A DNA stretch of 64,000 nt, from positions 288,001-352,000 of the forward strand of contig CAWFSF010000006.1 in assembly GCA_963818475.1 (NCBI GenBank), read 5' to 3'. Positions 19,860 to 40,605 of the stretch are shown here, piece after piece. The notes under the pieces are model-generated. The model was not told the origin of the DNA, did not search any database, and saw only the letters and a program-made list of their open reading frames with translations. The translations under genes were made by a program, and so were the position numbers. The stretch is from Nitrospirota bacterium (lineage in GTDB: Bacteria; Nitrospirota; UBA9217). The stretch's first letter is position 1. Each line of letters starts with the position of its first letter.

Positions 19860-19893
19860 GCCGCAGATGTACGCAGATTAACTGCAGATAAAA
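19860..19893. repeat. GCCGCAGAT..ACGCAGAT short tandem repeat (end of a GxxExxY-type shell)
   Basis: GCCGCAGATGTACGCAGATTAACTGCAGATAAAA between nuoN and tkt. Confidence 0.5.
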
Positions 19894-19985
19894 CCAGAGA
19901 TTAAGGTGGAAAAAACTTTACGATAAAATGTTGTTAGATTTTACCGGCGTCCAAATGTTCCCTCACATCTGTCAGCTCAATCGGA

Positions 19986-21419
19986 TCAATAATGCATTGC
20001 ACTCTTTATTATTTCTATCATCGGTCCGGGATACACGCCAAGCCAGATCAGCAGAACCATAAGACACGTAAGAACTGCGCTTCCGAATCTCGATGAAGGA
20101 ACAGCGGGCTCGGCTGACTGTCCTTCCGCCTGTTCAAAGAGCGCCGCGATGATGCGCAGATAGTAGAACAGGCCGATGGCGCTGTTGATGACGAGGACGA
20201 TGACCAGTGCCCAGAGGGACGATTCCGCGCCTGCACCCACCACATAGAACTTGCCGACGAATCCGGCGGTGAGCGGGATGCCTGCGAGCGAGAACAGCAT
20301 GGCGCTGAAAACTGCGGCAAGCCAGGGACGGCGCCAGGCGAGGCCCTGGTAGTCTTCCATGAGGTCGGCGTCACGGTCCTTGCCCGAGACCACGCTTACC
20401 ACGCCGAAAGCGCCGATGGTGGTGATGAAGTAGGCGACGAGGTAAAAGGCGGATGCCGAGATCGCCATGGGTCCGCTTGCCAGAAGCGTTACGAGCAGAT
20501 ACCCGAGATGGGAGATGGACGAGTATGCCAGAATGCGTTTGACGTTGTTCTGCTTCAGAGCGAGCAGGTTGCCAACGAACATCGACGCGATGGCAACGGC
20601 GCTCATGATCAGGAGCAGGGCTGGGCCGTTCATGGATGTCGATGCTCGTAAAGATCCGGAGAAGCACCGCAAAGACCGCGCCCTTTTGATATGGTTGCCA
20701 CGAATGCGGTCACCGGTGCAGGCGCTCCCTCGTATACGTCAGGCGTCCAGAGATGGAAAGGAACGACTGCAAGCTTGAACCCGAGACCTGCCAGGACCAT
20801 GGCGAGCCCGGCTGTCAGCGGCAAACCGTATGTTCCGGGAGCGCCGATGCGGGAAGCGATGTGGGTGAAGGTCATGCTGCCGGTCTCGGCATATACGAGC
20901 GCCATGCCGAAGAGTAGTACTCCTGACGAGGCAGCGGCCAGGATCAGGTATTTGACGCCTGCCTCGGTGCTCCGGAGGCTGTGGCGATGGTAGGCGGTCA
21001 AGGCATAGAGCGATACGCTCAAGCAGTTCGATGCCGAGGAAGAGCGATGCAAAGTGCGTGGCAGCGGTCAGCACCATTGCTCCCAGCGTTGCCAGGAGCA
21101 GCAAAAGATAGAACTCCTCCCGTTCGCCGGTACGGCCTTCAAAGTAGGAATAAGACAAGGCAGCGACTGCAAAGGTGCCGATCACGATCAACCCCAGAAA
21201 GAACAGGGCGTAGTAGTCGATCCTGATGAGCGAGGTTACTTCACGGGGCACGGTACAGATGGCTCCGCTAATGCTTGCAAGCGTCAAGGCAAGGCCTGAG
21301 AGCGTCAGGACCACGGTCAGCAAATGGCTGCGGCGCAGGGCGATCGCGAGCATGACCACGATGGCGGTGATCGACAGCATGATGAAGGGTGAAAGGGCGG
21401 TCAGGTCTCCCATGTTCAT
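19986..21419 (-). CDS. nuoN: NADH-quinone oxidoreductase subunit N (frameshifts)
   Basis: [51 protein letters not shown]. Confidence 0.93.
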
Positions 21420-22925
21420 TGTCCGACTCCCCTGGTTGATATTGGTTGCCCATGGCTTGAACAGCATTCGAGTCCGCTCAGCACGGGCTTGGCAGTATCC
21501 AGAATGGTCTGCGGAAAAAGGCCGATCGTGATTATCGCGATGATCATGATCGCAAGCATTCCCGTCTCGCGAACTGAAAGATCGGGCAGCTTGCTATCTG
21601 CCTATGGTACCGTGGAACACGCGCTGCGCTATCCGGAGCGAGTAGACGACTGAAAGGACGAGGCCCAAAGCGCCGATGACGGTCAAGGCGATATTCACCG
21701 GGAAGGTGCCGAGCAGGACCAGGAACTCGCCGACGAAGTTGGCGGTGCCCGGCAGGCCGAGCGAAGCAAGCACGAACACCAGGCCCATGCTGCTGAGCCG
21801 AGGAGCGCTGGTCCAGAAACCGCCCATGCTCCCCAGCTCGCGCGTATGGATGCGCTCCTGGATCATGCCCACGAGCATGAACAGCGCGCCCGTGGTAACG
21901 CCATGCGCCACGATCTGCATGACCGCACCGGACAAGGCAGCCGTGGTTCCGGCGAAGATCCCGAGCAGCACGAATCCCATATGGCTTACGCTGGTGTAGG
22001 CCACGAGGCGCTTCAGGTCGGTCTGGGCAAAAGCAAGCACGGCCCCGTACAGAATACCCGCAACAGCAAGTCCCATGACCACTGGCGCAACCATTTGCAC
22101 GGCATCGGGGAAGAGCGGCAGCACAAAGCGCAGGAGCCCGTAAGCACCGGTCTTTAAGAGCAGCCCCGCCAGGATGACGCTTCCGGCCGTGGGAGCTTCG
22201 GTATGCGCATCAGGAAGCCAGGGATGGAACGGCAGCATCGGCAGTTTCACGGCAAAGGCAATGAAGAACCCGAGCATGAGCCAGAGGGAAGCAGACGGCG
22301 ACATGGCGGTTCCCAGCAGCAGCGGATAGTCGAAGGTGTAGAAGCCGGTGCTCTTGCCATGAATGAAGTAGAGCCCCAGGATGGAGAGCAGCATCAAAAG
22401 GCCGCCGGCCTGGGTAAAGATAAAGAACTTGTACGAGGCGTATACGCGGTTCTCGTGCCCCCAGATGTTGATCAGGAAGTACATGGGCACGAGCATCAGT
22501 TCCCAGAAGAAATAGAACAGGAACAGGTCGAGCGAGAGGAAAACACCGAGGATGCCAGCCAGGATAAAGAGCAGGTTCAAATGAAAGAACCCGACCCGGT
22601 CGCTGATCTCGGTCCAGGAGCAGAGTACGGCCAGAATGCCGAGAAATATCGTAAGGGACACGAGGATCAGGCTCAGCCCGTCCAAGGCCAGATGGAAGCT
22701 GATGCCGAGCTGCGGAATCCAGGCGCGCTGCATCTCGACCAGCCAGGAATCAGGCGTAAGGGACACCGCAGCAACGTGCTCGTTCCAGAGCAGCAGGACC
22801 AGTACCAGGTCAAACGTGAGCGCACTCAGCGCGATCCAGCGCGGCAGGTTGCTGTTCTTCCCGTCGGAAAGCCATGCTGCCAGTCCGCCCAGAAGCGGTA
22901 TGATGATGAGCAGGAGGAGGATCAT
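21416..22925 (-). CDS. nuoM: NADH-quinone oxidoreductase subunit M (3' frameshift)
   Basis: FFWELMLVP, VKLPMLPFHPWLPDAHTEAP, KRLVAYTSVSH, GLPGTANFVGEF. Confidence 0.93.
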
Positions 22926-22965
22926 GGTGTTTAGTGCTTTCCTCTCAGTATGGTACTTGTTGATT

Positions 22966-23008
22966 CTCATCCTCTCCCCAACGAGGGAGAGGACCGAGGT
23001 GAGGGGGG
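22966..23008. repeat. DUF559-associated palindrome (CCTCTCCC..GGGAGAGG..GGTGAGGGG)
   Basis: Hairpin motif, inverted relative to 23386-23430. Confidence 0.75.
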
Positions 23009-23010
23009 AA

Positions 23011-23361
23011 TCAGATTCCCTTTTCCATCTTTTCCAATATATCAGCCATAACTACTTCCGGCGATTTTAATACGTCATGGTTCCAGTAACGTAAAACACG
23101 GTAGCCCCGTTCTTTCAACCAGGCACTTCTTTTTTCATCATATTGAACTTGATCGGTGTGCTGGCCTCCATCGAGTTCGATGATCAAGCGTTGTTCTAAA
23201 CAGATAAAATCTACAATATAAGACCCGATCGGCTGCTGTCTCCGGAACTTAAATGCACCCAGTTGACGCATTCGCAGGTGTTTCCAAAGAAGCCGTTCCG
23301 CGTCGGTTGCTTTCCTGCGTAATTGCCTTGCGTTTGTGATACTGGTAGGACTGTGCTCCAT
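23011..23361 (-). CDS. DUF559 / Vsr-like endonuclease domain protein inserted between nuoL and nuoM
   Basis: ARQLRR..TDAE..LW..LR, FRRQ.PIG.YIVDF, IELDGGQH, GYRVLR.WN. Confidence 0.9.
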   Translation of the reverse strand: MEHSPTSITNARQLRRKATDAERLLWKHLRMRQLGAFKFRRQQPIGSYIVDFICLEQRLIIELDGGQHTDQVQYDEKRSAWLKERGYRVLRYWNHDVLKSPEVVMADILEKMEKGI

Positions 23362-23385
23362 TTATGGAGATCCTTCCCTTTTATC

Positions 23386-23430
23386 CCCCTCACCCTGGCC
23401 CCTCCCTCGAAGGGGAGAGGGAATAAGGGG
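23386..23430. repeat. DUF559-associated palindrome (CCCCTCACCC..CCCCTCCC..GGGGAGAGGG)
   Basis: Upstream boundary of the DUF559 cassette. Confidence 0.75.
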
Positions 23431-23437
23431 CTACATC

Positions 23438-25326
23438 CTACTGAAAGAGCAATATGAACCCCAAAAACACCACCACACCCACAGCGATCCCCATTGCATA
23501 CCATCGTATATTGCCGGTCTGTGTTCTGCTCAAGACACGGTGCAAGGCCGTATTCATGGTAACGATGCCGTCATATCCGCTATCAATGAAGTCATCCTTA
23601 TTGATCCTCGCGATCCAAAGAAAGGGTTTTACCAAAAGGGCATCATAGAGGGCATCAAATCCCCAGCCTGCGAACCAGAACCTGCGCAGCGCCTCAACCG
23701 GGCTGGCAGTTGCGAACTTATCAGCATAGGCCGGTTTGCGAACGTAGAGAACGTAAGCAAGCACGATACCTGAAACAGAGACTAATGAAGCCACGATCTG
23801 CAAGAGCAGTTCCATGTTTCCTGCTGCATGTATCTGGCGAAGCCGGGAATACCGCTGACATGAAATTCGAGAAGAGCGGCATATTGCCGAGCGTATCAGG
23901 AATTTCGATAAAACCTCCGATAATGGATAAAAGAGCGAGCACGATGAGCGGAGCGGTCATACGTCTCCCCGGTTTCATACTGAGCCCGATCTTTTCTTTT
24001 CCAAAGAAGGTGACAAATACCATCCTGAAGGTATAGAGCGAAGTAATGAACGCCCCCAAAAGGCCTGCCAGCCAGAGCCAGATGTTGCCTGTTGGCGACG
24101 ACCATGCTTGCCACAGGATCAGGTCCTTGCTGTAGAACCCTGCGGTCACGAGCGGCAACGCCGAGAGCGAGGCCGAGCCGATGAGGAATGTCCAGAACAC
24201 CAGCAGGAAGCCGCTTCCTGAGCCCGCCCATCTTGAACATGTCGTGTTCCTCGTGCTGGGCCAGGATGACGACACCTGCGCCAAGGAACAGCAGCGCTTT
24301 GAAGAACGCGTGGGTCATGAAGTGGAACATTGCTGCCGACCAGGCGCCAACGCCCAGGGCAAGGAACATGTAGCCGATCTGACTGATCGTTGAATAGGCA
24401 AGCACCCGTTTGATATCTTTCTGCGTCAGGGCGCTGAAACCTGCAAGCAGCAGCGTTGCTGCACCGATGACTGCTACGGCCGTCTGAACAGGAGGCGCGA
24501 GCAGAAACAGAACGTGGGTACGGGCAATGAGATACACGCCGGCGGTCACCATGGTGGCTGCATGGATGAGCGCGCTGACCGGCGTGGGGCCAGCCATGGC
24601 ATCGGGAAGCCAGGTCTGGAGCGGCAGCTGGGCGGATTTACCGACTGCTCCTCCCAGAAGCAGTGCCGCCGCAGCCATTGCCAGGGGAGAGCCGATCTGC
24701 CATTCAGCCGAGGCCCGCTGCATCAGTTCCTGAATATGGAGCGTTCCGAGGTTCGTGTACAAGAGGAACAGACCGATCGCCATGAAGGTATCGCCGATGC
24801 GCGTTACGATAAAGGCCTTGCGCGCAGCAGCGCCGTTCACGGGATCCTTGTACCAGAACCCGATCAGCAGATAACTGCAGAGGCCCACGCCTTCCCACCC
24901 GAGATACAGGAGCAGCAGGTTGTCAGCCAGTACGAGCGTCAGCATGGATCCGACAAAGAGGTTCATATAAGCGAAGAAACGGCTGTATCCTTCGTCGTTC
25001 TGCATGAATTCAGCAGAATAAAGATGAATGAGGAAGCCCACAAAGGTGATGACGAAAATCATGACGAGCGACAGCGCATCAAGAGAGAATGAAACGCTGG
25101 CCGAGAAACCGCCGACCTTCATCCAGGTCCAGAGCGTCTGTGTGAATGCAATGTCCTGAGACCCGATGAACTCGATCGCCATGATCATGGTCAGGAGAGC
25201 GGACATGCCGACTGAGCCCGCTCCGACGAGGGCGATTGTGGCCCGGGAGAGGCGACGGCCTGCCAGCGCCAGGATCAGGAATCCGGCAAAGGGCAGGGAA
25301 GGTATGAGGAAAAGATAATTAGACAT
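23438..25326 (-). CDS. nuoL: NADH-quinone oxidoreductase subunit L (two frameshifts)
   Basis: GWEGVGLCSYLLIGFW, GKSAQLPLQTWLPDAMAGPTPVSALIHAATMV, HAFFKALLFL. Confidence 0.94.
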
Positions 25327-25337
25327 ACGTTAGATTC

Positions 25338-25427
25338 ACCACAAGACAAGTTGAACCGCAGAGACGCCGAGACGCTGAGAAAATCCTAGCGATTATGCAT
25401 TTCTCTGTGTCTCCGTGCCTCCGTGGT
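25338..25427. repeat. ACCGCAGAGACGCCGAG..CTCCGTGCCTCCGTGGT inverted 8-mer array shell between nuoK and nuoL
   Basis: Tandem 8-mers in opposite orientation at the two ends. Confidence 0.65.
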
Positions 25428-25437
25428 AGATTAGCGT

Positions 25438-25749
25438 TCATCCTTTCATGCTGTTTGCAGCATCAGCATCCAGTGTCTTCAGGTTGTGGTACAGCTGGAT
25501 CACGAGCGCCAATCCGACCGAAACCTCTGCCGCAGCCATGGTCAGGATAAAGATGAACATGACCTGGCCGTCGGGCTGCCCCCAGCGGGCGCCTGCCACG
25601 ACGAAGGCGATGCCGACGGCATTCAGCATGATCTCGATGGACATGAGCATGAACACGATGTTGCGCCGGACCAGTACGCCGACAAAACCCAGCGCAAAGA
25701 TCACGGCTGCCAGGATAAGTCCGTGTTCCATGGGGACCGTTGCCATCAT
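25438..25749 (-). CDS. nuoK: NADH-quinone oxidoreductase subunit K
   Basis: [25 protein letters not shown]. Confidence 0.95.
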
Positions 25750-26264
25750 GATCTGCCCTCTTCAACTTTTCCATGACGATGGGGCCTGCCGAGGTGGTAG
25801 GCGCCAACCAGTCCGCTCAGCAGAAGCATGGACGCCAGCTCAACGCCGATCACATAGGGGCCGAAGAGCGCGATGCCGATCTCCTTGGGCGATATTTCAG
25901 CGCCAACAGAGAGTCGTTCCTGGCCGGTCGCGAACAGGTAGATAAGCTCGGCAGCGAGGACGATGATAAGGAGGGACGGGCCGATCCATATACCCGGTGT
26001 CAAAAGCCGGGCTTCCTCTTTCGCCGCCTGTCCGCCGAGGTTCAGCATCATAATGACGAATATGAAAAGCACCATGATGGCGCCGGCGTAGATGATCACT
26101 TCGAGCGCAGCCACGAAGGGCGCGCCAAGGGCAAAGAAGATCAAAGCTACTGCCAGCAGCGATACAATCAGGTAGAGTAGGGCATGCACGGCATTCGTCC
26201 GGGTAATGACCAGGATGGTCGAGATGACTGCCACGAGGGCTGAGATGTAGAAAAGAAAGTTCAT
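25746..26264 (-). CDS. nuoJ: NADH-quinone oxidoreductase subunit J
   Basis: [23 protein letters not shown]. Confidence 0.93.
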
Positions 26265-26277
26265 GAACACCTTTTTT

Positions 26278-26750
26278 GCCACGAAGGCACGAAGACACGA
26301 AGAACTTCTAAAAAAGTAAAAGCCGCTATACAACAATCCTTTTTATGCCGTGCTTAATAAGGGGGACATTAAAGTTAATGAGAAAACCTAAACGTTTATC
26401 GGTCAATTTTAAGTGACTAATTATCTGGGCTTCCCAGACAGGGTGCATTTCTTCCACTGCTTTTAGCTCGCAAATAGCCAGATTTTCGACAAGAACATCC
26501 AGTCGTAATCCTTCGTCGAATTTAAGTCCGTCGTATTCAATGGGGATGTCCACTTGTCTTTGGTTTTGTAATCCTCGTTTAGTCAACTCATGACAAAAAC
26601 AAATCTCATATACTTTTTCAAGCAAGCCCGGCCCTAGTGCTTTGTGGACAGTGTAAGCCGCATCAACGATTTTCTTGGCAATAACCTCTTCAGTTTCCGA
26701 CAAGTTAAGAGTGCTCATGACTCCCCTTCGTGTCTTCGTGCCTTCGTGGC
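26278..26750 (-). mobile_element. Putative GxxExxY cassette element bounded by inverted (CACGAAGG/CACGAAGA)x3 arrays
   Basis: GCCACGAAGGCACGAAGACACGAAG at the left end and its exact reverse complement at the right end; AT-rich interior. Confidence 0.7.
26326..26718 (-). CDS. GxxExxY protein (PD-(D/E)XK nuclease-like)
   Basis: VHKALGPGLLEKVY, RLDVLVE, ELKAVE, GFLINF. Confidence 0.92.
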   Translation of the reverse strand: MSTLNLSETEEVIAKKIVDAAYTVHKALGPGLLEKVYEICFCHELTKRGLQNQRQVDIPIEYDGLKFDEGLRLDVLVENLAICELKAVEEMHPVWEAQIISHLKLTDKRLGFLINFNVPLIKHGIKRIVV

Positions 26751-26759
26751 AAATTATGT

Positions 26760-27275
26760 TTAGGGTAGTAAGCTCCTTGTATCAACGGGCTTTTCTTCAT
26801 TCTCAGCTTCGCCCTTGTCCTTCCCCTTGATCGACAAGCCTGCGACACGGTAGAAATTATACTCATGGTACTTGCCGGGGCCGCTGATCAGCAGGTCTTC
26901 TTTCTCGTATACGAGGTTCTGCCGCTTATATTCACCCATCTCGAAATCGGTGGTGAGCTGTATGGCATTGGTCGGGCATGCTTCTTCGCAGTATCCGCAA
27001 AAGATGCAGCGCGAGAAGTTGATCCGGAAGAACTCGGGATACCGCCTTCCGTGCTCGTCCTCGGTCGACTGGAGCGAGATGCAGTCCACCGGGCAGGCCA
27101 CGGCGCACAAATAGCATGCGACGCAGCGTTCCTGGCCGTCGGGGTCGCGGGAGAGGATGATCCTGCCGCGCCACCGGGGAGGGATATAAGGCCGCTCCTC
27201 GGGGTACTGGATCGTCGCCCGCTTCCGGAACATGGTCATGAAGACCGTATAGATCGTTTTGAGAAGACTAATCAT
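26760..27275 (-). CDS. nuoI: NADH-quinone oxidoreductase subunit I
   Basis: Two CxxCxxCxxxCP motifs; RDPDGQERC. Confidence 0.96.
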
Positions 27276-27283
27276 ATGAACCT

Positions 27284-27372
27284 TTTGACACTGAAGGACA
27301 CTGATCTCGTTATGATTAAAACATACGATCTAAAGACGTATCATAAAAAATCTGTGTTGATCAGTGTCTAAA
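27284..27372. repeat. TTTGACACTGAAGGACACTGAT..ATCAGTGTC shell between nuoH and nuoI
   Basis: Shares TTGACACTGAAGGACACTGAT with 32546. Confidence 0.75.
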
Positions 27373-27374
27373 TA

Positions 27375-28331
27375 TTATTTTGCCTTAAGCAGTATCCATG
27401 CACCCGTCACCACCAGATTCAGCAGCGACAACGGCAGCATCACCTTCCATCCGAACGACATCAGCTGATCATACCGCGGCCGGGGAAGCGACGCCCGGAG
27501 CAGGATGAAGAAGCAGATGAAGACAAAGGTCTTGATCAGGAACCAGACGATCGGCGGCAGGAACGGCCCCATCCAGCCGCCGAAGAACAGCGCCACCGTG
27601 ATCGCCGAGATGAGCGTGATGCCGAGATATTCACCCACAAAGAACATGCCGAACTTCAGCCCCGAGTATTCCGAATGGAAGCCTGCAACCAGTTCGCTCT
27701 CCGCCTCGGGAAGGTCAAAGGGCAGCCGGTGGGTCTCGGCGACGCCGGCGATGAAGAAGACCACGAAGCCGATGAACTGCGGCACGATGAACCAGCCGTC
27801 GCGCTGCGCCTCGACGATCACGCGCAGATTGAACGAGCCCGCCAGCATGACCACGCCCATGAGCGACAGACCCATGAAGACCTCATAGCTCAGCATCTGC
27901 GCAACCGAACGCAGCCCGCCCAGGAGCGCATATTTGCTGTCCGAAGCCCATCCTGCGAGCGCCACGCTGTACACACCGAGGGACGACATGGCGAGGAAGA
28001 ACAGCAGCCCGATGTTCAGGTCCACGACCTCGATGCCCGGCGCAAAGGGGATGACCGTGAAGGACATGAGCACGACGACCATGATCACGGCTGGAGCAAT
28101 GATGAACACCGGCTTGTCGGCAAAGGGCGGGACCCAGTCCTCTTTTGTCAGGATCTTCACCGTGTCCGCCAGCACCTGCAGCAGGCCGAAGGGCCCCACG
28201 CGGTTCGGGCCGTACCGGTCCTGCCAGAGCGCAAGGAGCCTGCGCTCAAGCCAGATGAGCATTGCGCCGATGGTCAGCACCACGAAGAGGATGCTGAAGA
28301 GGACCAGGATATGATAAAGCGCTTCATTCAT
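27375..28331 (-). CDS. nuoH: NADH-quinone oxidoreductase subunit H
   Basis: [44 protein letters not shown]. Confidence 0.96.
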
Positions 28332-31052
28332 TTGTTTGCCCGTTTGATTCCGATTTTACTCGCTCCCTGATACCCGGCGCATACATGCTGAGTTCTTCTG
28401 AACCAAAAATGCGATACATCGGAGAATCAGGCTTTTCGCCTTGCTTGGATAGATTGGCATCTGGAATGTTTTGGAAGTAGGTTATTTCCGCGACGGTCTC
28501 CCCCCTCACCCCAGCCCTCTCCCGCGAGGGGAGAGGGGAAACTTGTCCCTCTCTTGATGGGAGGGATGAAGGGAGGGTGAGAGGTTCGATCAAGCGAATT
28601 CCCGTATCGCCGCCTTTCAAGCATCACCGCCGATCTCCTCCTGGTACTTGTTCAGCGCCTGGACCGAGTTCCACCCTGGAGACCAGTAGCGCGAAATAAG
28701 CGGGGCAGGCGGTTGGCCTTCGTATCCTTCCATGGAAAAAGACAAGCGGGGAATCAGCATCGTCGGCTGGTTTGGGTTCATGTACGCTGATGTTCGCGAG
28801 CATGGACGTCCTGCCGCTGTACCGGTGCGGCTGACGCGGTATCTTCTGTCCCGATATCCGAAAGTCAGCTGTCGGTGCAATGTCCAGGACAGGCTTGAAA
28901 ACAGGCAAAGAGGAAGCCATCTCCTCAATAACATCATCCAATGATCGTTTGCCCTCTCCCCCGAGGGAGAGGGTTGGGTGAGGGGGGCTTTCCCGATTGC
29001 TTGCATTATATCATCGATCCACTTCCAGCTTTCCTGAATGTCATGGTTCGGATCGAATACCTTATAGAACCGCTGTGCCCTGCCTTCATTATTCACCAGC
29101 GTCCCATGTGCCTCGGCAAATGTCGCAGCAGGCAGGGTTACATCCGCTTTTGATGAGGTTGGGTTGATCAGGTGATCGATAACGATGACGTTCTTTGCAT
29201 GGGATCAATGCTTCATCGACGATCTTTGCATCAGCCCTGCGATAGAGATCATTTTCGAGGATGATCAGCGTATCTGCCTTGACTGTCCTGCATGGTTTTG
29301 AATGCAGCATCTATATTCTTACCCTTCATGAGAGCGAGTCCCATGGTATTGCATTCAAGAGCTCGTGTAGCAGAGGTCGGCCTGCTTGCCAATCGAGCAA
29401 AGAGCCCATGCAACATTGGCTGCTGCCTCGATAACAGCCTGGTTCATGCATCCGGTGCCGCTCACGATGACCGGCCGCTGTGCGTTCTTGAGCGCGGAGG
29501 CGATCTCGCGTGCGAGAGGCATTCTATCGGTGTCCCCCCTCACCTCGAGTCCTCTCCCCCGATGGGAGAGGAGGGAGAGTGTCAGGTGCATCGGGATCCA
29601 GTTCATGTGCCACGGCAAAACCGAGTCTTGCGATGTCATCGTGCGCAGCTAGATAGGTCTTTGTTGCCACATCATCCAGTTTCGTCTTTTCACAGGACGC
29701 TATATAGAGCGGTGTTCTGATGTTCTGTCCTGCGTTCCTGACAGCATTATCATCCCAGACAGGAATCTTCATGGCTGCCGCAGCCTCGCGTTGTTTGTTC
29801 TGTGCCGCCTGACGAAGCGCGAGGGCGAGCATCGGGGCCGTGTTGGTCACATCCTCGCCAAGTATCAAGACCGCATCTGCTGACTGAACGTCATGGAGCG
29901 ACGGTATCCTGGCAGGACCTCTTTGAAGGATATCGATTATGAGTTCTGTTAGCCGGTGCTCTTTATCAGATACCCCTGAATAGAAATTATCCGGTCCCAC
30001 AAGGGTGCGAAGTGCGAAGTTGGATTCCAGCGAGGCCCGGGGAGAACCGATGCCGATCACGCCTTTGCTTTGAGAAAGCATGTCGGCTATGCGTTTGAGG
30101 GCTGTTACTTTTTCAACGGGTTGCTGCTTCCCCTCACCCCGTCCCTCTCCCTCAGGAGAGAGTAGTGCCCCTCCTAGGGAGGGGGAGAGGGTGACGTTGC
30201 AACAAGAGGTTTTCTGATCCTTTTTCCGCTGTTCACGAACTCATAACCGAACCTGCCGCGGTCGCAGAGGAAATAGCCGTTTACCTCATGGTTGTATCGG
30301 TTCAATATCCTGCGCAGCGTGCCGTATCGTTCGCCCGGGATCGTGTTGCATCCGATGCCGCAGTGAACGCAGATGGACGGCGCTGTCTGAAGGTCCCACT
30401 TTCGGGTGTAATGCTGTTTGAGCGTCTTGTCTGTAAAAACACCGGTGGGACAGACCTCTACCAGGTTCCCGCTGAACTCGCTTTCGAGCGCGCCCTCTTC
30501 ATGCCTGCCGAAATAGACGTTGTCATGGGACCCGAACACGTTAAAGTCGCGGCCGCCTGCATAATTACGATAGAACCTGACGCAGCGGTAGCACTGGATG
30601 CAGCGGTTCATCTCATGATTGATGAAGGGGCCGAGGTCCTGGTTTCGGTGCGTCCGTTTTTTGAACCGCGTCCTGCGGTAATTATGGCCGGTCATGACCG
30701 TCATGTCCTGGAGGTGGCACTCGCCGCCTTCGTCGCAGACCGGACAGTCATGCGGATGGTTCAGCATGAGCCATTCGATCACGCTCGACCGGAAGGCCCG
30801 CGCATCAGGATCGTCAATGGACAAACGCATGCCTTCCGCCACCGGGGTCATGCAGGACATGGTGATCCTGCCGCGCGTATCCTTGTCGTCTTTGAACACC
30901 TTGACCGCGCATTGACGGCATGCGCCCACGGAGTGCAGGGCAGGGTGCCAGCAGAAGTAGGGAAGGTCGAACCCCAGCGAGAGGCAGGCCTGGAGGAGGT
31001 TCTGGCCTTCTTTTACCTGATGGGGTTTATTGTCGATGTAGATCGTAAACAT
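28324..31052 (-). CDS. nuoG: NADH-quinone oxidoreductase subunit G (several frameshifts; four internal palindromes)
   Basis: [58 protein letters not shown]-terminal IFGSEELS. Confidence 0.9.
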
Positions 31053-31072
31053 ACAAAACCTTTTACAGAATA

Positions 31073-31253
31073 TTTGACACGGATTTTCACGGATTTAAAC
31101 GCCGATAAGGGCGGATAAATGCAGAATCAAGCTGATTTGTTAAAAGACACGGCGAACTATTTTAAGTTTTTCTCCGAAATTGAGCGTTGTTTCAGCATGT
31201 ATCAAGTTGCTATCAGCCGTGATCATAATTAAATCCGCTCCTTCCGTGTCAAA
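31073..31253 (-). mobile_element. Internally deleted GxxExxY-type element with 28-aa remnant ORF (31140-31226)
   Basis: TTTGACACGGA..TCCGTGTCAAA terminal inverted repeats; remnant MITADSNLIHAETT-LNFGEKLKIVRRVF. Confidence 0.65.
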
Positions 31254-32529
31254 GGATTTTCTCCCACGGGCATTTCTTCTCCCGTATATGCCTCTCAAAA
31301 TCTTCCCGGAAATACTTGATCGCGCTCTGAAGCGGCTCCACCGCGCCCGGCGCGAGCGCGCAGTAGGTGTTCCCGGGGCCGAGCAGCTTGCACTGCTGCG
31401 CAAGGATATCGATGTCTCCGGGTTCTCCCTCGCCGTTCTCGATCGCATGGAGCATTTTCTCGATCCACGGCAGGCCCTCGCGGCAGGGCGTGCACCAGCC
31501 GCAGGATTCGCGGCGGAAGAAAGTCTCAAGGTTATGCACAAAGCCGACGGGGCAGGTCTTGTCATCAAGCACGATCATGGTGCCGGTGCCCATGCGGCTG
31601 CCGGCCTTCATGACCGAGTCAAAGTCCATCTTCACGTCCAGATGTTCGGCAACCAGAAAATCGGTCGACGCGCCGCCGGGGATCACGCCGCGAAATTGAT
31701 AGCCATCCTGCATCCCGCCGGCATGTTCTTCCAGAAGTTCCCGGACCGTGACTCCTATGGGAAGTTCCCAGATTCCGGGTTTTTTCACCCTGCCGCTGAC
31801 GCCGTACAGCTTGGTGCCGGCGTCGGGACCCTTGCTCAATCCCTTGAACCAGTCCGGCCCGTTCTGAACAATATGCGGAATGTTCGCAATGGTCTCGGCA
31901 TTGTTCACGATCGTCGGCCTTCCCCAGAGGCCGCAGACCTGCGGGAAGGGCGGTTTGGAGCGCGGCGTGGCGCGCTTTCCTTCGAGGGCGTTCAAGAGCG
32001 CTGTTTCCTCGCCGCAGATGTAGCGGCCGGCGCTGGAATGGATGCGAAGGTCGAGGTCGAATCCGGAACCAAAGATGTTCTTTCCGAGATACCCTGCTGC
32101 ATAGGCTTCTGCAATTGCTGTCCCCAGCCTCTTCTCGGCAAGCTTGTATGCCCAGCGGAGAAAGATATAAGACTGTTCCGCCTGAATGGCATAGGCGCTG
32201 ACGATCACGCCTTCCACGATCTGGTGCGGATCACCTTCGAGCAGCATGCGGTCCTTGAACGTGCCGGGCTCCATCTCGTCGGCGTTCACCACGAGATATT
32301 TGATCTTCGGCGCGTTGTCGCCCATGGGCACAAAGCTCCACTTGGCGCCTGTGGGGAAGCCTGCACCACCGCGGCCGCGCAGGTTCGAGGCCTTGACCAT
32401 GTCCTGCACCTGCTGGGGCGTCATGGTAAGCGCTTTGCGCGCAGCTTCATAGCCGCCCGCTTTCTCGTAGTCTTTCAGCGAGAGCGGTTCCTGGTTGGGG
32501 CGGATGTTATTGGTGAGCGGTCGTTCCAT
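31249..32529 (-). CDS. nuoF: NADH-quinone oxidoreductase subunit F
   Basis: LRGRGGAGFPTG, NADEMEPGTFKD, GRYICGEETAL, ESCGWCTPCREG. Confidence 0.96.
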   Translation of the reverse strand: MERPLTNNIRPNQEPLSLKDYEKAGGYEAARKALTMTPQQVQDMVKASNLRGRGGAGFPTGAKWSFVPMGDNAPKIKYLVVNADEMEPGTFKDRMLLEGDPHQIVEGVIVSAYAIQAEQSYIFLRWAYKLAEKRLGTAIAEAYAAGYLGKNIFGSGFDLDLRIHSSAGRYICGEETALLNALEGKRATPRSKPPFPQVCGLWGRPTIVNNAETIANIPHIVQNGPDWFKGLSKGPDAGTKLYGVSGRVKKPGIWELPIGVTVRELLEEHAGGMQDGYQFRGVIPGGASTDFLVAEHLDVKMDFDSVMKAGSRMGTGTMIVLDDKTCPVGFVHNLETFFRRESCGWCTPCREGLPWIEKMLHAIENGEGEPGDIDILAQQCKLLGPGNTYCALAPGAVEPLQSAIKYFREDFERHIREKKCPWEKIL

Positions 32530-32545
32530 AGTAAACCTTAAATCA

Positions 32546-32643
32546 TTGACACTGAAGGACACTGATTGCTTATGATCCACATTGATAAGGACACGGCTAA
32601 AATTGATTTATCATAGCCTTTGTCAGTGTAAATCCGTGTCAAA
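32546..32643. repeat. TTGACACTGA..CCGTGTCAA shell between nuoE and nuoF
   Basis: Same terminal family as 27284 and 9835. Confidence 0.75.
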
Positions 32644-32646
32644 AGT

Positions 32647-33111
32647 TTATTCGTATTTATTCAGTATCTCATCCATCATCTCGGCTGTCACAGGACCATA
32701 CAGTTCCTCGTCCACCATCATCGCCGGAGCCCGGTCGCATGCGCCGAGGCAGGAGATCGGGAGCAGCGTGAATCGTTTGTCCCCGGTCGTCTCGCCGAAC
32801 GCGATACCCAATTTAGTCTTCAGCAGGTCCAGCAGGGGATTATATCCCATGACCCAGCAGCTGATGCTGTCGCACACGAGGATCACATGGCGTCCAACCG
32901 GCTGCCTAAAGATGAAGCTGTAGAACGTGGCAACGGCGTCGAGCTCGTCTGCCGACATCTCGAGCACGGCAGCGACATCCCTGATCGCCTCGTCAGATAC
33001 CCAGCCGCGGTGCTTCTGGATGATCTTGAGCGTTTCGATGGATGCGGACTGCTTGAATTCGCAGTGCGCTAGCTCGGAATTGATCTCTATTTTTTCTTGT
33101 TCAGTGAGCAT
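32647..33111 (-). CDS. nuoE: NADH-quinone oxidoreductase subunit E
   Basis: VATFYS, CDSISC, CLGACDRAP. Confidence 0.95.
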   Translation of the reverse strand: MLTEQEKIEINSELAHCEFKQSASIETLKIIQKHRGWVSDEAIRDVAAVLEMSADELDAVATFYSFIFRQPVGRHVILVCDSISCWVMGYNPLLDLLKTKLGIAFGETTGDKRFTLLPISCLGACDRAPAMMVDEELYGPVTAEMMDEILNKYE

Positions 33112-33122
33112 GTTGTACCGCA

Positions 33123-33507
33123 TTACCTCCTCTCCCCAAGGGGAGAGGATTGAGGTGAGGGGGTGTTCTCTGTTGCTCTCAGAATAACTTCACAAACACC
33201 TGCAATATTCATTAAGATGTCCCTGTCGCTGAATCGTAACATCCGTATGCCTTGCATTTCCAAAGCTTCGGTTCTAACTTTATCTTTTGTTACTCCTTCA
33301 TCGGTGTAGTGCTGACCGCCGTCTGCCTCTACTGCGATCTTGTGCTCGGGTGCATAGAAGTCCAGAATATACTTGTCTATCGAGAACTGTCTTCTGAACT
33401 TTATTCCATTGAGCTGACGATTGCGAAGAACAGACCAAAGCTTTCTTTCAGCATCAGTCTAAATTTTTTCGAAGCTTTCTGCTGGCTGATATATTGGGTC
33501 GCTTCAA
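33123..33507 (-). CDS. Second DUF559 / Vsr-like endonuclease, between nuoCD and nuoE (one frameshift; absent from the ORF track)
   Basis: Manual translation: RKLRKN..TDAERKLWSVLRNRQLNGIKFRRQFSIDKYILDFYAPEHKIAVEADGGQH..GIRMLRF; palindromes at 33126-33163 and 33511-33549. Confidence 0.85.
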
Positions 33508-33559
33508 CGTCCCCCCTCACCCCAACCCTCTCCCCGGAGGGTAGAGGGAGTTTTTAATA

Positions 33560-35306
33560 TCACCTATCCAAATCCGCCAGAATAAAGTCAATGCTCCCCA
33601 GGATCGCCAGCAGGTCCGCGATCATCAGTCCCTTGCAGATCTTCGGCACCATCTGCATGATGCGCGAACGAAGGGGTGCGAATGCGCGTTCGGTAGGACT
33701 GGGTGCTGCCGTCGCTGATCAGGTAGTAGCCGTTATTGCCTTTGGTCGCCTCGATGCCCATGAAGGCCTCGCCGGCCGGGATCACCGGGCCCCAGCTTGT
33801 GCTCAGGAAATGCGTGATGAGTGTCTCGATGTCCTGCAGGGTCCGCTCCTTGCGGGGCGGCGTGGCGAGCGGATGGTCGGACTTGTATCTGCCCTCGGGC
33901 ATATTGTTCACGCACTGCTCGACGATTCGCAGGCTCTGGCGCATTTCCTCGACGCGCACCACACCGCGGTCGTAACAGTCGCCGTGAACAGCCGTGGGGA
34001 TATCGAACTCGAAGTTTTCGTACCCGGAGTAGGGCCTTTTTTTACGAAAGTCCCAGTCGAACCGCAGGCCCGAAGTCCCGGCCCGGTGACGCCCCATTCG
34101 ATGGCTTCTTCCAGCGTGTAGGCCCCGACCCCTTTGGTACGGCCTTTGAAAATGCTGTTCTGCATCACAATGGAATCGTATTCCTTAAGCCGCGGCGGCA
34201 GATAGGCGAGAAAATTGCGCACCAAGCGGTCCCAGCCTTTCGGCAGGTCCTGCGCCACGCCGCCGATCCTGAACCATTCAGGATGCATGCGTCCGCCGCA
34301 GATTGCCTCGATAATATCGAAGATGCGTTCGCGGTCCGTGAACATGTAGAACACGGGCGAGAGCGCGCCCACGTCCTGGGCAAAGGTGCCGTACCAGACC
34401 AAATGACTGGCGATCCGGAACAGCTCAGACAGCATGACCCTGATCACTTGCGCGCGCGCAGGCACCTCGATGCCAGCCAGTTTCTCCACTGCGAGGCAGT
34501 AGGCCATGTTGTTCATGACGCCGCCTAAGTAGTCCACGCGGTCCGTGTAGGGGATGAAGGTGTGCCAGGTCTGGCGCTCGGCCATCTTTTCCGCGCCGCG
34601 GTGATGGTAGCCGATGTCGGGCACGCACTCCTTGATCTCCTCGCCGTCGAGCTGCAGGATGAACCGGATGAGCCCGTGCGTGCCCGGATGCTGGGGGCCG
34701 AGGTTCAGGAACATGAAGTCCGTGTCCTCTGCCGTGCGCGTCATGCCCCAGTCTTCGGGCCGGAACTTGAGCGCCTGCTGTTCGATCGCTTCCTTCTCAT
34801 CAGGAAGCTGGAAGGGTCCCATCTCGGTTGCGCGCGCAGGGTGGTCCTTGCGCAGGGGATGGCCTTTCCAGGTCGGCGGCATCAATATCCTGCTCAGGTG
34901 CGGATGGCCGTCGAAGGTGATGCCGAAGAGGTCCCAGACCTCGCGCTCGTACCAGTTGGCTGACGGCCAGAGACCGGTGATGGTCGGAAGGGACGGAGCA
35001 GTGCCAATGAGCGCAACCTTGATGCGGATATCGTCGTTGCGTTCATAGGAAAGAAGATGATAGACAACGGTGAAGTCGCTCTGACGGCTGGTCCGGGCGG
35101 TGACGCCGCACGCGCTCGTCTATGGCAGTGAGGTCGTACAGCATCTTATAGGGACGGTCGATGGCGATCTTGAGATGACGGAGTATGTCGGGGGCCTTCT
35201 CTTTCCTGACCCAGATCGTCGGGATGTTGTCGCGGGTCTGCTGGACCGCGAGGATGGAGTCGCCGAAGGTTGTTGTGAGGTCGTTGATGATGGGATGGAT
35301 ATCCAT
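33560..35306 (-). CDS. nuoC: Fused NADH-quinone oxidoreductase subunit C/D (frameshifts)
   Basis: [57 protein letters not shown], terminal ADLDR; no stop/start between the C and D parts. Confidence 0.9.
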
Positions 35307-35323
35307 AATTAAGGCAAAAGACA

Positions 35324-35508
35324 TTGACACTGATGAACACTGAGAGAAACTATGCTGAACCAGGAGAAACCGGAACAAAAATCTAAAGGCGCCTCTCGCA
35401 ATGGTCCCAGACCACGATGAGGCGCAAAGGGCGCAAAGGAAATCATTTAGTCCTGGTTTTTAACCCGAGTGAATTGCTTTTCTTTGCGAGCTTTGCGCCT
35501 TTGCGAGA
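35324..35508. repeat. Composite repeat shells between nuoB and nuoCD
   Basis: TTGACACTGATGAACACTGA half-element plus GCGCAAAGGGCGCAAAG..CTTTGCGAGCTTTGCGCCTTTGCGAGA inverted array. Confidence 0.7.
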
Positions 35509-35550
35509 AAATTTCTTGACGTTTTGAAGAGAATTTTATTCTTTTCGTTC

Positions 35551-36166
35551 CTACACTTCATCGATCGGCCGCAGGATCGTCGCTTTCATACGCTCCTCCC
35601 GCTTCAGCATCGCGCATGCACGGCATCTCAGGCCGCACGATGCCTTGCGGGCCTGCGGCCCAGCTGAGGGGCCGTCGCTCCTTGCCCACCATGTCCCGGA
35701 GCATGAGCAGTCCTTCCATGAAGGCATCGGGCCGGGGCGGACAGCCGGGAACATACACGTCCACGGGCATGAACTTGTCAACGCCCTGGACAACGCTGTA
35801 GATATCGTACATGCCGCCGGAGTTGGCGCAGGATCCCATGGAGATGACCCAGCGGGGCTCCATCATCTGTTCGTAGAGCCTTCTGATCACCGGCGCCATC
35901 TTGATAAAGACCGTGCCCGCGACGATCATCATATCGGCCTCGCGCGGCGTGCCGCGCATCACCTCCGCCCCGAAGCGGGCGATATCGTACTTGCTGGTCA
36001 GGCTCGTTGCCATCTCCACGTAGCAGCAGGAAAGGCCGAAGTTGAAGGGCCAGATGGAATTCTTTCTGCCCCAGGCGAGCATGTCCTGAAGCCGCGTGAA
36101 CATGAGGCTTTGGCGAACGGCATTATCGAGCGGGTCGCGGTCGGGTTTTGTAATTGAGTAGTTCAT
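35551..36166 (-). CDS. nuoB: NADH-quinone oxidoreductase subunit B (3' frameshift)
   Basis: [26 protein letters not shown]. Confidence 0.95.
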
Positions 36167-36232
36167 AGCTTATAGTTAGGAGTAAGGAGTTAGTTACAAA
36201 TCAAATTCTATACAAAAGACAAGGAACTTATC

Positions 36233-36334
36233 GCCACGAAGGCACTAAGACACGAAGAACTTCATGAAAATTATCGAGTTAATTAAATTACAAAAATACT
36301 CATGCCTCTCTTCGTGCCTTCGTGTCTTCGTGGC
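36233..36334. mobile_element. Empty, non-autonomous copy of the 26278-26750 element
   Basis: GCCACGAAGGCACTAAGACACGAAGAACTTC ... CTCATG..CTTCGTGCCTTCGTGTCTTCGTGGC. Confidence 0.75.
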
Positions 36335-36359
36335 AGGTTTTGTTCCGGTTTGACCGGTC

Positions 36360-36761
36360 TCAACGCCGAACTCGCATCTCAGGCGATCTCCATTCAAGGG
36401 CGCCGAGTCTCCAGAGATACACCAGCGCGGCGGCAAGAACGCCGATGAAGATCAGCATTTCAGTATACCCGGCCCAGCCGCTTTCGCGCAGCGAGACGGC
36501 CCAGGCATAGACGAAGACGGATTCCAGGTCGAAGATGACGAAGAACATCGCGATGAGGTAGAATTTAACATCAAAGCGCACCCGCGCCGAGCCGGTGGAC
36601 ACGATGCCGGACTCGTAGGGTTCATCGGTCTGCTTCTCCCGGTGGCGTTCGCCGAGGAAGTAGGACAAGGACAGCATGGCTGTTACGAGCAGCAGGACCG
36701 CGGCGAAGTACAGTGCCAGCGGCCAAAGGGATGATGACGGCGATCCGGGAATGGAATGCAA
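36360..36761 (-). CDS. nuoA: NADH-quinone oxidoreductase subunit A
   Basis: PYESG, FYLIAMFFVIFDLE, GALEW. Confidence 0.95.
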   Translation of the reverse strand: MHSIPGSPSSSLWPLALYFAAVLLLVTAMLSLSYFLGERHREKQTDEPYESGIVSTGSARVRFDVKFYLIAMFFVIFDLESVFVYAWAVSLRESGWAGYTEMLIFIGVLAAALVYLWRLGALEWRSPEMRVRR

Positions 36762-36952
36762 GCGTGCTGCCTCCTCGTTGACGACTGTAAAAAAAGAATA
36801 GCACAGCGATTGGGAATGTCAAGAACAGGATTGGTGCAACAGATTGAAAGGTTGACAAAAATAATGAACGCTGATACTGTATTCGTCATCATAACGAAGG
36901 TATGATGACTTCCATGTCAGCCTACGTATACCATACGTACAAAGGAGGATGT

Positions 36953-40542: not shown

Positions 40543-40605
40543 CAAGGAGCGACAGTCTCATTTTTACCTTGGCACTTGCTACTTGACCCTTGCCCCTAAT
40601 TTCCT

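Follow-up and report, generated by a model that had tools for sequence, protein, structure and literature searches.

Candidate mobile cassettes and hairpin shells between the complex I genes of a Nitrospirota bacterium

Why are the gaps between the genes of a conserved operon filled with small nuclease genes and hairpin-forming repeats? This question is raised by the complex I (nuo) operon in the window analysed here, a stretch of 64,000 nt from a Nitrospirota bacterium (G000:C6:288001-352000; genome G000 comprises 4.66 Mb in 7 contigs and is 91% complete). A preliminary description, made from the window alone, had proposed a transposase-free system targeting operons, in which small nucleases and their cognate repeats insert at gene boundaries, use the host promoter and then decay to shells. 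Our analysis leads to a related reading, to which we give a probability of roughly 0.6: the nuo gaps are filled by selfish mobile cassettes resembling the intervening sequences (IVSs) of rRNA, together with derivative, non-autonomous shells.

The operon consists of 13 genes in the order nuoA-B-CD-E-F-G-H-I-J-K-L-M-N, with nuoCD fused, and all of its pieces matched NCBIfam models. Junction lengths, computed after correction of gene starts, bore out the earlier count of nine occupied junctions out of twelve: A/B (193 nt), B/CD (∼233 nt), CD/E (464 nt), E/F (∼117 nt), F/G (196 nt), H/I (99 nt), I/J (497 nt), K/L (111 nt) and L/M (467 nt). At the other three the genes overlap, by 8 nt at G/H and 4 nt at J/K, and at M/N if a frameshift in the 3′ part of nuoM is disregarded. 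With the corrected starts, the spacers of the window operon sum to about five times those of the most compact relatives. Genes are present at I/J (GxxExxY) and at L/M and CD/E (both DUF559), a GxxExxY remnant lies at F/G, and gene-less hairpin shells occupy A/B, B/CD, E/F, H/I and K/L. No transposase or integrase was found among the open reading frames (ORFs) of the nuo junctions, as the preliminary description had stated. The operon and the contents of its junctions are as follows.

Positions 19986..36761, reverse strand: nuoA-N operon, with NCBIfam matches of every piece.
Positions 22971..23437, reverse strand: L/M cassette, with a DUF559 gene at 23011-23361 and composite arms at 23383-23421 and 22971-23010.
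Positions 25340..25437, unstranded: K/L shell, CACGGAG/CACAGAG class, fold z −2.8.
Positions 26263..26759, reverse strand: I/J cassette, with a GxxExxY gene at 26326-26718 between 28-nt arms.
Positions 27276..27374, unstranded: H/I shell, GACACTGA class, fold z −4.5.
Positions 31053..31248, reverse strand: F/G cassette remnant, with arms at ∼31227-31252 and 31073-31096 around the relic.
Positions 32540..32650, unstranded: E/F shell, GACAC-GGAT/TGA class, fold z −3.3.
Positions 33124..33587, reverse strand: CD/E cassette, with a DUF559 gene at ∼33174-33482 and G/C-rich arms at 33510-33548 and 33140-33163.
Positions 35412..35508, unstranded: B/CD shell, CGCAAAG class, fold z −3.7.
Positions 36228..36344, unstranded: A/B shell, inverted triple octamers of the CACGAAG class with a AAACCGGAAC head in front.

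At I/J, the two 28-nt arms (26275-26302 and 26726-26753) are 100% complementary and close a 423-nt loop that contains the ORF. Folded as RNA, the arms pair with each other (z −5.5), and the GxxExxY gene has its own Shine–Dalgarno-like GGGGAG. Its protein scored 136.7 bits against TIGR04256 (cut-off 35), and the GxxExxY paralogues reached 108–141 bits against the Pfam family PDDEXK_3 (PF13366; cut-off 22). Across 10 aligned GxxExxY sequences, E34, Y37, Q55, D74, E84 and K86 were invariant and G31 was present in at least 90%; the catalytic PD-(D/E)XK residues D74, E84 and K86 are intact in the I/J protein. A sequence search for a solved structure gave nothing usable (best E 0.037). For the AlphaFold2 model (pLDDT 93.6), the top VIA-align rows were all PD-(D/E)XK nucleases, namely the Cas4 protein SSO0001 (Z 7.9), BpuSI (Z 7.9) and Hjc (Z 7.3), with Foldseek E-values of 0.024 or worse. 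Because Hjc, Cas4, restriction enzymes and splicing endonucleases were tied below Z 8, with no subfamily singled out, we take the model to indicate a PD-(D/E)XK nuclease fold and make no functional inference beyond that. The accessible portion of a survey of PD-(D/E)XK proteins lists PDDEXK_3 with function unknown (PMC3424549), and in the available excerpts of the literature the sole bacterial passage mentioning GxxExxY concerns mis-annotation of Cas4. The I/J protein is 54–56% identical to proteins of Planctomycetota and Bacteroidota, compared with 29–48% to its paralogues and family members, which we read as a sign of horizontal transfer between phyla.

The F/G junction, recorded in the preliminary description as an empty shell, holds a 28-codon in-frame GxxExxY remnant that had been missed (31140-31226, 'MITADSNLIHAETTLNFGEKLKIVRRVF'). 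An intact gene of 126 aa is present at this junction in four other genera (loci L006, L007, L011 and L015), and L016 has a truncated copy; the 'shell' is an internally deleted GxxExxY gene. Between the F/G orthologues, the proportion of non-synonymous differences (pN) was 0.14–0.31 against a saturated synonymous value (pS) of 0.77–0.92; since synonymous sites are saturated between genera, we give pN and pS and no dN/dS. One orthologue pair had a dN of 0.153, compared with 0.162 for nuoF. The F/G gene thus appears to be under purifying selection and to diverge with the operon, suggesting that some cassettes are long-term vertical residents. The left arm of this cassette (31225-31252) also holds a good promoter-like match (TTGACA, 16 nt, AATTAT), and arms of the GACAC class carry −35-like hexamers. 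In total, GxxExxY had 12 matches in G000, 1–8 in those genomes of the same family that have it, and 2–7 in five other genomes.

The two DUF559 genes scored 148.2 bits (L/M) and 106.2 bits (CD/E) against PF04480 (cut-off 20.6), the CD/E copy containing one in-frame TAG that stems from a single-base shift. Against the NCBIfam equivalog NF007294, DUF559 reached 121.5 bits at a cut-off of 218, which makes it a family member and not that equivalog. The closest solved structure was 3HRL, an uncharacterised, endonuclease-like protein (E 7.3e-32, residues 19-113), and in the part of the PD-(D/E)XK survey open to us DUF559 is grouped in one clade with the homing endonuclease of a group I intron and with Vsr (PMC3424549). 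DUF559 arms are built from a CCCTCTCCC..GGGAGAGGG palindrome plus a GGTGAGGGG-type arm, and each L/M arm consists of a small palindrome followed by GGTGAGGGGG. Profile matches and arms therefore agree with the inventory first given for the operon, two DUF559 genes and one GxxExxY gene with class-specific repeats. Repeats of the DUF559 type also occur at four sites within nuoG, which the earlier account did not include.

Positions 28324-31052, reverse strand: nuoG, within the nuo operon.
Positions 30130..30162, unstranded: DUF559-type repeat, nuoG site 1, a ∼28-aa in-frame insert in the intact NuoG of the congener.
Positions 29534..29572, unstranded: DUF559-type repeat, nuoG site 2, a ∼32-aa insert in L002.
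Positions 28954..28987, unstranded: DUF559-type repeat, nuoG site 3, a ∼9-aa insert in L002.
Positions 28499..28537, unstranded: DUF559-type repeat, nuoG site 4, a ∼30-aa insert in L002, with an insert at the same site in L005.

In the congener L002, NuoG is an unbroken frame of 930 aa in which the repeats are read in frame as loop inserts of 9–32 aa relative to the shortest relative. Genome-wide, we counted 42 copies of the DUF559-type repeat (at most 4 mismatches), compared with 1 for a control with the pattern reversed. Five of the 42 fall in the nuo span (0.36% of the genome), next to its two small DUF559 genes, and G000 has no others of that kind. The CD/E copies of DUF559 formed one clade with the orthologues in G003 and G021 (SH-aLRT 95). 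The L/M gene of the window, together with its arms, grouped with a non-nuo copy from another genus (G012:C91; 72% identity, SH-aLRT 99), and the L/M genes of G005, G003 and G021 formed a separate group with different arms (SH-aLRT 86, below the star threshold). Since the DUF559 tree and the arms differ alike, L/M has been occupied by two cassette lineages within one genus.

Five of the nuo genes (nuoN, nuoL, nuoM, nuoCD and nuoG) are split by frameshifts, each of which corresponds to a single extra base relative to L002.

Positions 20627, 20687, 21022, 21600, 23832, 24203 and others, reverse strand: extra-base sites in nuoN, nuoM and nuoL, from the congener comparison.

The extra base was likewise absent at 21024 and 24205 in metagenome contigs of relatives, and split genes occur elsewhere in G000 too (patatin, priA, fumarase). 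Given this absence from the congener and the metagenome contigs and the same splits elsewhere in the genome, the nuo frameshifts, that of the CD/E DUF559 gene included, are probably assembly errors, and the rate of insertion errors in the assembly seems to be about one in every 1–2 kb. We also observed a divergent second nuoH-like gene (G000:C6:2301395-2301889; 51% identity over part of the query); relatives likewise have a second nuoH-like copy, at ∼48–50% identity.

All five gene-less shells folded better as RNA than shuffled sequences did (z −2.8 to −6.6), and the G/C-rich DUF559 repeats folded no better than shuffles (z −0.6 to −1.6). The A/B shell had a fold energy of −48.9 kcal/mol (z −6.6), belongs to a whole-length family of 7 copies and is followed by a decayed heptamer array (∼36167-36200). 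The right arm of the E/F shell (32546-32566) lies inside the nuoF frame as first called; the true nuoF start is at ∼32529. At B/CD there is in addition a solo arm (35324-35344), and the class of the shell is the arm class of the GxxExxY cassette at G000:C6:1800616. Shells of the CGCAAAG/CGCAGAG type cluster at G000:C6:1799222-1802977, at most 2 kb from this CGCAAAG-armed cassette, which hints at local spread like that of the DUF559-type repeats around the nuo DUF559 genes. Outside the operon, a heptamer-array hairpin (CAAGTAGCAAGTAGCAAGG) lies at window positions 40529-40585; arrays of its class flank a gene for the 23S-IVS protein (IVP) at G000:C3:7651.

If these elements are mobile, the contents of a given junction should differ between relatives, and the preliminary description had named invariant junctions as grounds for giving up its proposal. 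We compared the nuo operons of 18 relatives, 19 loci in all, and found junctions that were empty or held a shell, a remnant or an intact gene; the variation among relatives removes that objection. The I/J junction, 497 nt in the window, was shorter both in L002, where its 21 nt are unrelated, and in L003, whose 34 nt include a right-arm stub. Among other genera, the junction held nested shells or shells of the same build with other motifs, or was clean at 12 nt or less. The H/I shell was orthologous in three congeners (among them L001 and L002), and a G/C-rich element stood in its place in a fourth (L003). Genome G016 had an intact GxxExxY gene at F/G and a GxxExxY pseudogene with 3 stops at J/K. 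DUF559 was present at L/M in G005, G003 and G021, and at CD/E in G003 and G021. In L007 and L014, where L/M is empty, one small hairpin like those at cassette ends still stands alone; it may be either a footprint of loss or a landing pad. Locus L018 (genome G008), among the most compact relatives, had no GxxExxY, DUF559 or CACGAAG arms, and its junctions ranged from −32 to 120 nt. The nuo junction sites thus show presence and absence, decay and re-occupation, as homing endonuclease genes do.

The metagenome comparison, with four DNA runs, covered short contigs of relatives at 85–95% likeness. One such contig (X5) joins position 33112 to 33562 with 13 other letters between; as a single low-depth record of low likeness, it gives a weak hint of an empty CD/E site. 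A joint of 26303 to 36309 was simply another shell with the same arms.

Is a given class of repeat tied to a given gene family beyond this operon? In G000, about 10 of 11 GxxExxY loci were bracketed by inverted arrays of three 8–10-nt units, each locus with its own motif. With at least 14 matched bases as the threshold, a flanking inverted repeat was found at 54 of 60 GxxExxY loci in the same family of genomes and, in other phyla, at 64 of 78 testable loci, compared with 11 of 273 shifted controls; this last set of 80 loci came from Planctomycetota, Bacteroidota, Chloroflexota, Acidobacteriota, Verrucomicrobiota, Proteobacteria, Cyanobacteria and others. The arms had a common build, in which ACC[AG]C precedes three C[AG]C..AG units. 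Mapped on the GxxExxY tree, the arm motif required 56 changes, compared with 82.0 ± 2.1 when labels were shuffled (300 shuffles, minimum 75), and the loci from other phyla alone required 28 changes versus 38.6 ± 1.6. This fit between motif and tree indicates joint inheritance rather than specificity. Two further families had flanking repeats of their own: 23 of 28 testable DUF559 loci in relatives were flanked by G/C-run palindromes (scored by eye, without a control), as were 25 of 31 testable loci of IVP (PF05635) by inverted heptamer arrays, one of them carrying the commonest heptamer shell motif of G000. The proposed tie between repeat class and gene family hence holds across genomes.

Position and orientation were also consistent between loci. 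Ten of the 11 GxxExxY loci in G000, and the IVP locus that we examined, lie in sense between co-oriented housekeeping genes; neighbours of the cassettes include larC/nadE, rsmI, hemH/hemY, priA/smpB, two fumarase subunits, mnmE/mnmG and nuoI/nuoJ. With a crude call of the longest ORF, 69 GxxExxY loci across phyla could be scored: 50 had both neighbours on the strand of the gene, 7 had both on the other strand, and 12 had one on each. The co-orientation first noticed in nuo is therefore supported. As for transcription, a consensus scan for promoters returned 15 sites, compared with 9.4 ± 2.8 in shuffles; the best of them lies upstream of nuoA, as follows.

Positions 36795..36822, reverse strand: promoter-like site, TTGACA, 16 nt, TATTCT, with TG.

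The same scan found no promoter-like site ahead of the cassette genes, which agrees with the suggested use of the host promoter; the read-through itself we infer. A role in defence was considered and rejected, as neither nuo nuclease belongs to a defence system listed in PADLOC: GxxExxY and IVP matched 0 of its families, and for DUF559 the one match, to DpdF, was weak and partial (E 2.8e-4, 16.7 bits).

Genome-wide, nuo was one colonised operon among several and not uniquely colonised. G000 contains 403 tandem arrays of 7–10-mers, and contig C2 has 86, compared with 1 in a third-order Markov simulation. The 5 strict arrays of the nuo span place it at the 95th percentile, and the nif cluster has 11; nuo is thus not the most colonised locus. 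This cluster (G000:C6:59500-69900, loci L030 and L031), which lies outside the window, is the densest region of the genome for tandem arrays and encodes nifH, D, K, a TauE-like protein, E, N, a FeMo-cofactor protein, two P-II proteins and a ferredoxin; the TauE-like gene, between nifK and nifE, is bracketed by CACGGAG arrays.

Many repeats share their ends with particular cassettes. The I/J arms matched 85 sites in G000, of which 29 are paired no more than 250 nt apart. For the two further cassettes whose arms are near-perfect the numbers were 65 and 29, and cassettes with degenerate arms matched at most 27 sites. We found 17 whole-length inverted-repeat families, one of which was a CRISPR array (G000:C6:1998511-2002859, repeat TCATCCCCGCACGTGCGGGGAACA; masked out of the inverted-repeat counts). 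Whole-length shell families with conserved loops had 24, 7, 7, 5 and 4 copies, which argues that shells are copied as units and are not only wrecks of cassettes. The idea of decay to shells therefore holds in part: remnants exist, but shells also form whole-length families of 4–24 copies. Outside the window there is a further family of ∼143-nt miniature inverted-repeat transposable elements (MITEs) with 25 copies and terminal inverted repeats of ∼25 nt (CCTTAAAAAAGCATTTGGACACGG..., e.g. C6:113080-113214). About 16 of the 25 copies have A/T-rich direct repeats of 5 bp at their ends, as judged by eye, and some carry a nested insert of ∼25 nt. No gene-bearing version of this MITE was found in G000, where larger pairs enclose ordinary genes. 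At the shells and cassettes of the window we saw no clear target-site duplication. In addition, two ORFs recognised by eye from their translations resemble tyrosine transposases associated with repetitive extragenic palindromes (REPs), one of 187 aa (G000:C5:67206-67858) and a 74-aa fragment (C3:127400-127696), between palindromic repeats of their own; this repeat system is separate from the nuo cassette repeats.

Several of these results weigh against selfish, self-moving cassettes as the explanation. The nuo span contains only 2 strict inverted-repeat elements, a number reached by 36% of equal-sized windows, which suggests that most nuo shells are old and degenerate. Copy numbers are low and no two cassettes in G000 are near-identical; a recent gene-bearing jump was not seen. 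Purifying selection on the F/G gene would fit a useful or domesticated gene equally well, so the picture of mobile invaders, borne out by variation and replacement at the junctions, does not extend to these long-term vertical residents. The non-nuclease IVP shares the architecture, and the design therefore needs no nuclease; a description in terms of nuclease cassettes, though correct for GxxExxY and DUF559, was too narrow. Tests of labels on a tree do not prove co-evolution, as kin share labels. The co-occurrence of arms and matching cassettes was mixed: within the genus, CACGAAG arms numbered 77 in G000, which has the cassette, 21 in G003, which has a stub, and 1 in G005, where I/J is empty, but such arms were present without a detectable matching cassette in G006 (39), G010 (43), G021 (22), G001 (44) and G004 (49), the last two genomes being incomplete. 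Finally, the ∼143-nt MITE family, with its 5-bp direct repeats and no gene-bearing partner found, suggests that these copies at least are moved by an unlinked mobiliser.

How might cassettes of this kind work? A full element consists of one small gene that lacks a promoter and has a ribosome-binding site of its own; it lies in sense between co-transcribed genes and is closed by repeats specific to its family: triple 8–10-mers for GxxExxY, a G/C palindrome plus a GGTGAGGGG-type arm for DUF559 and heptamers for IVP. Expression would come from read-through from the operon promoter, and by analogy with rRNA IVSs, long stems such as the 28 bp at I/J may be cut in the mRNA by RNase III. The nuclease could nick or cut its cognate repeats or an empty landing hairpin, whereupon repair would copy in a cassette or shell in a homing-like manner; alternatively, the cassette protein may be a transposase for elements with matching ends. 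That the protein acts on its own repeats in either way is a tentative suggestion, and the odds lie somewhat against it. Junctions gain, exchange and lose elements, and the genes decay by internal deletion, while gene-less shells persist and also multiply in the manner of MITEs, as units whose ends are those of particular cassettes. The spacers of essential operons may retain such elements because imprecise deletion would be harmful there, and 'operon-targeting' is inseparable from better survival in such sites. A broader claim, that GxxExxY, DUF559 and IVP are guilds of a single widespread, transposase-free mobile class, at home in rRNA genes and in the transcribed spacers of essential operons, in which each protein recognises the repeats around its own gene and mobilises itself and shells with matching ends by homing or by cut-and-copy, we regard as doubtful; if true, one mechanism would account for three long-standing puzzles, namely rRNA IVSs, the paired tandem sites in Geobacter and the heptamer repeats of cyanobacteria.

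Three other explanations were weighed. The repeats could be host-beneficial RNA elements, such as RNase III or RNase E sites or protectors of 3′ ends, that set the relative output of cistrons in operons as long as nuo and nif, with the genes domesticated or incidental. Strong hairpins at five junctions and the 28-bp I/J stem would suit this role, and one study, in its accessible text, documents that RNase III processes the comparable stems of rRNA IVSs (PMC4990558). Shells of the same architecture occur at one junction in several genera with both arms changed together, the F/G gene is under apparent purifying selection with a divergence like that of nuoF, and the densest arrays lie in another multi-subunit operon, nif. 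A processing signal of use to the host is nevertheless hard to reconcile with a junction that is empty in one close relative and holds a shell, another class or a gene in the next, or with compact relatives that do nearly without spacers (L018/G008). The same repeats also sit within coding sequence and between unrelated genes, gene remnants and pseudogenes exist, and shell families are copied whole, loop included. We consider this explanation unlikely.

Quite unlikely, too, is that the shells are ordinary MITEs moved in trans by unlinked transposases, the small genes being passengers or persisting where MITEs accumulate. Such elements are present in G000, as the 25-copy ∼143-nt family with its 5-bp direct repeats and lack of a gene-bearing version illustrates; the genome encodes REP-associated (RAYT-like) transposases with their own repeats, and other genomes have many arms but no cassette with matching arms. 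Passengers, though, would not be expected to lie centrally between the arms in sense orientation, nor would three unrelated gene families each be expected to keep a repeat architecture of their own across phyla, with an arm motif that follows the GxxExxY tree; the operon junctions moreover hold no transposase ORF. It is highly improbable that, as was suggested in Geobacter metallireducens, the arrays serve in pairs to bind a global regulator or a nucleoid protein (IHF/HU). Tandem short repeats are typical of protein-binding arrays, and the class 2 consensus TCTCCGTS given in the accessible text of that work is the reverse complement of the CACGGAGA units (PMC2700814), but at least 27 motif labels occur among 109 cassettes, many classes coexist within one genome, the motif is inherited with the enclosed gene, the sites are within operons and not at promoters, and both arms always form a hairpin. 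We thus return to selfish cassettes with derivative shells as the preferred reading.

The cassettes resemble several known systems. In the passages available to us, the rRNA IVS is described as an element of 428–444 nt that contains a small ORF, is closed by a terminal stem of 28 bp and is cut out by RNase III (PMC4990558). IVSs with an S23p ORF, from Coxiella, Leptospira and others, are likewise ∼430–500 nt long with a terminal stem of ∼28 bp and one small ORF (PMC4990558), and as far as those passages go they share with the nuo cassettes a transcribed, conserved locus, a sporadic distribution, and an origin and mobility that are unknown. The S23p/IVP family is present in G000 in the same cassette form. 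The nuo cassettes differ in lying in mRNA spacers between protein-coding genes and not in rRNA, in encoding nucleases and not S23p, and in the make-up of their arms, which are arrays of short tandem units. One 23S gene was found in G000, and it contains no large insert (3002 nt for 2925 model positions). The nearest worked-out analogue, on the parts of its literature at hand, is the REPIN-RAYT system (PMC3116915, PMC3337134, bioRxiv 10.1101/2021.07.10.451892). There too, a low-copy gene is flanked by its own inverted repeats, tens of gene-less inverted doublets with the same ends are dispersed in the genome, and some copies persist vertically for long periods. In contrast, the genes of nuo-type elements are PD-(D/E)XK, Vsr-like or four-helix bundle and not an HUH (IS200-like) tyrosine transposase, several cassettes occur per genome, and they combine an intra-operonic sense position with signs of transfer between phyla.

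The shells themselves have been described before. In the accessible sections of their work on Geobacter metallireducens, Aklujkar et al. reported paired sites of 3–5 tandem octa- or heptanucleotides on opposite strands and proposed that they bind an unidentified global regulator or IHF/HU (PMC2700814). As in the window, the distance within pairs is variable and pairs lie between operon genes, e.g. proB/proA (PMC2700814, PMC2996986); the class 2 consensus equals the CACGGAG units of the window (PMC2700814), and a Geobacter repeat family is found inside genes without frameshifts, as in nuoG here (PMC2996986, PMC2700814). These papers, in the sections available, read the sites as regulator sites and make no tie to enclosed genes (PMC2700814, PMC2996986).

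With free-standing and intron-borne homing endonuclease genes, the cassettes share a small nuclease gene between conserved genes and patchy presence, decay and re-occupation; they differ in having inverted repeats and gene-less copies and in the lack of a known recognition or cleavage site. With MITEs, the shells share being multicopy and non-coding, with terminal inverted repeats and whole-length similarity. Correia and ERIC MITEs are short hairpin elements in transcribed regions and inside operons, cyanobacterial short tandemly repeated heptamers (STRR) form arrays in nif regions, and Rickettsia palindromic elements are repeats tolerated in frame inside proteins. To our knowledge, none of these is tied to GxxExxY, DUF559 or IVP genes, and a literature search on STRR brought up nothing of relevance. 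A literature search, with most subscription journals outside its reach, found no link of GxxExxY, DUF559 or IVP to repeats or mobility outside rRNA; the shells are therefore already described, and it is their link to these genes that we did not find in the literature. We regard the finding as a variant of the IVS, REPIN-RAYT and MITE kinds, with a real chance that it represents a new class of mobile element.

Were the link real, two very large families of unknown role would gain a function and a substrate open to testing: GxxExxY/PDDEXK_3, with at least 586 confirmed loci in one scan, and DUF559. One kind of element would then also join rRNA IVSs, operon hairpin repeats and in-frame insertions in proteins. 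A small PD-(D/E)XK enzyme specific for sequence or structure, with a defined repeat as its target, could also be a useful tool. The hairpin elements inflate and fragment the assemblies of such genomes and yield spurious ORFs, such as the repeat-encoded 'SPLPSGERGRGEG' peptides. For the organism itself, the hairpins probably cut or stabilise the polycistronic mRNAs of complex I and nitrogenase.

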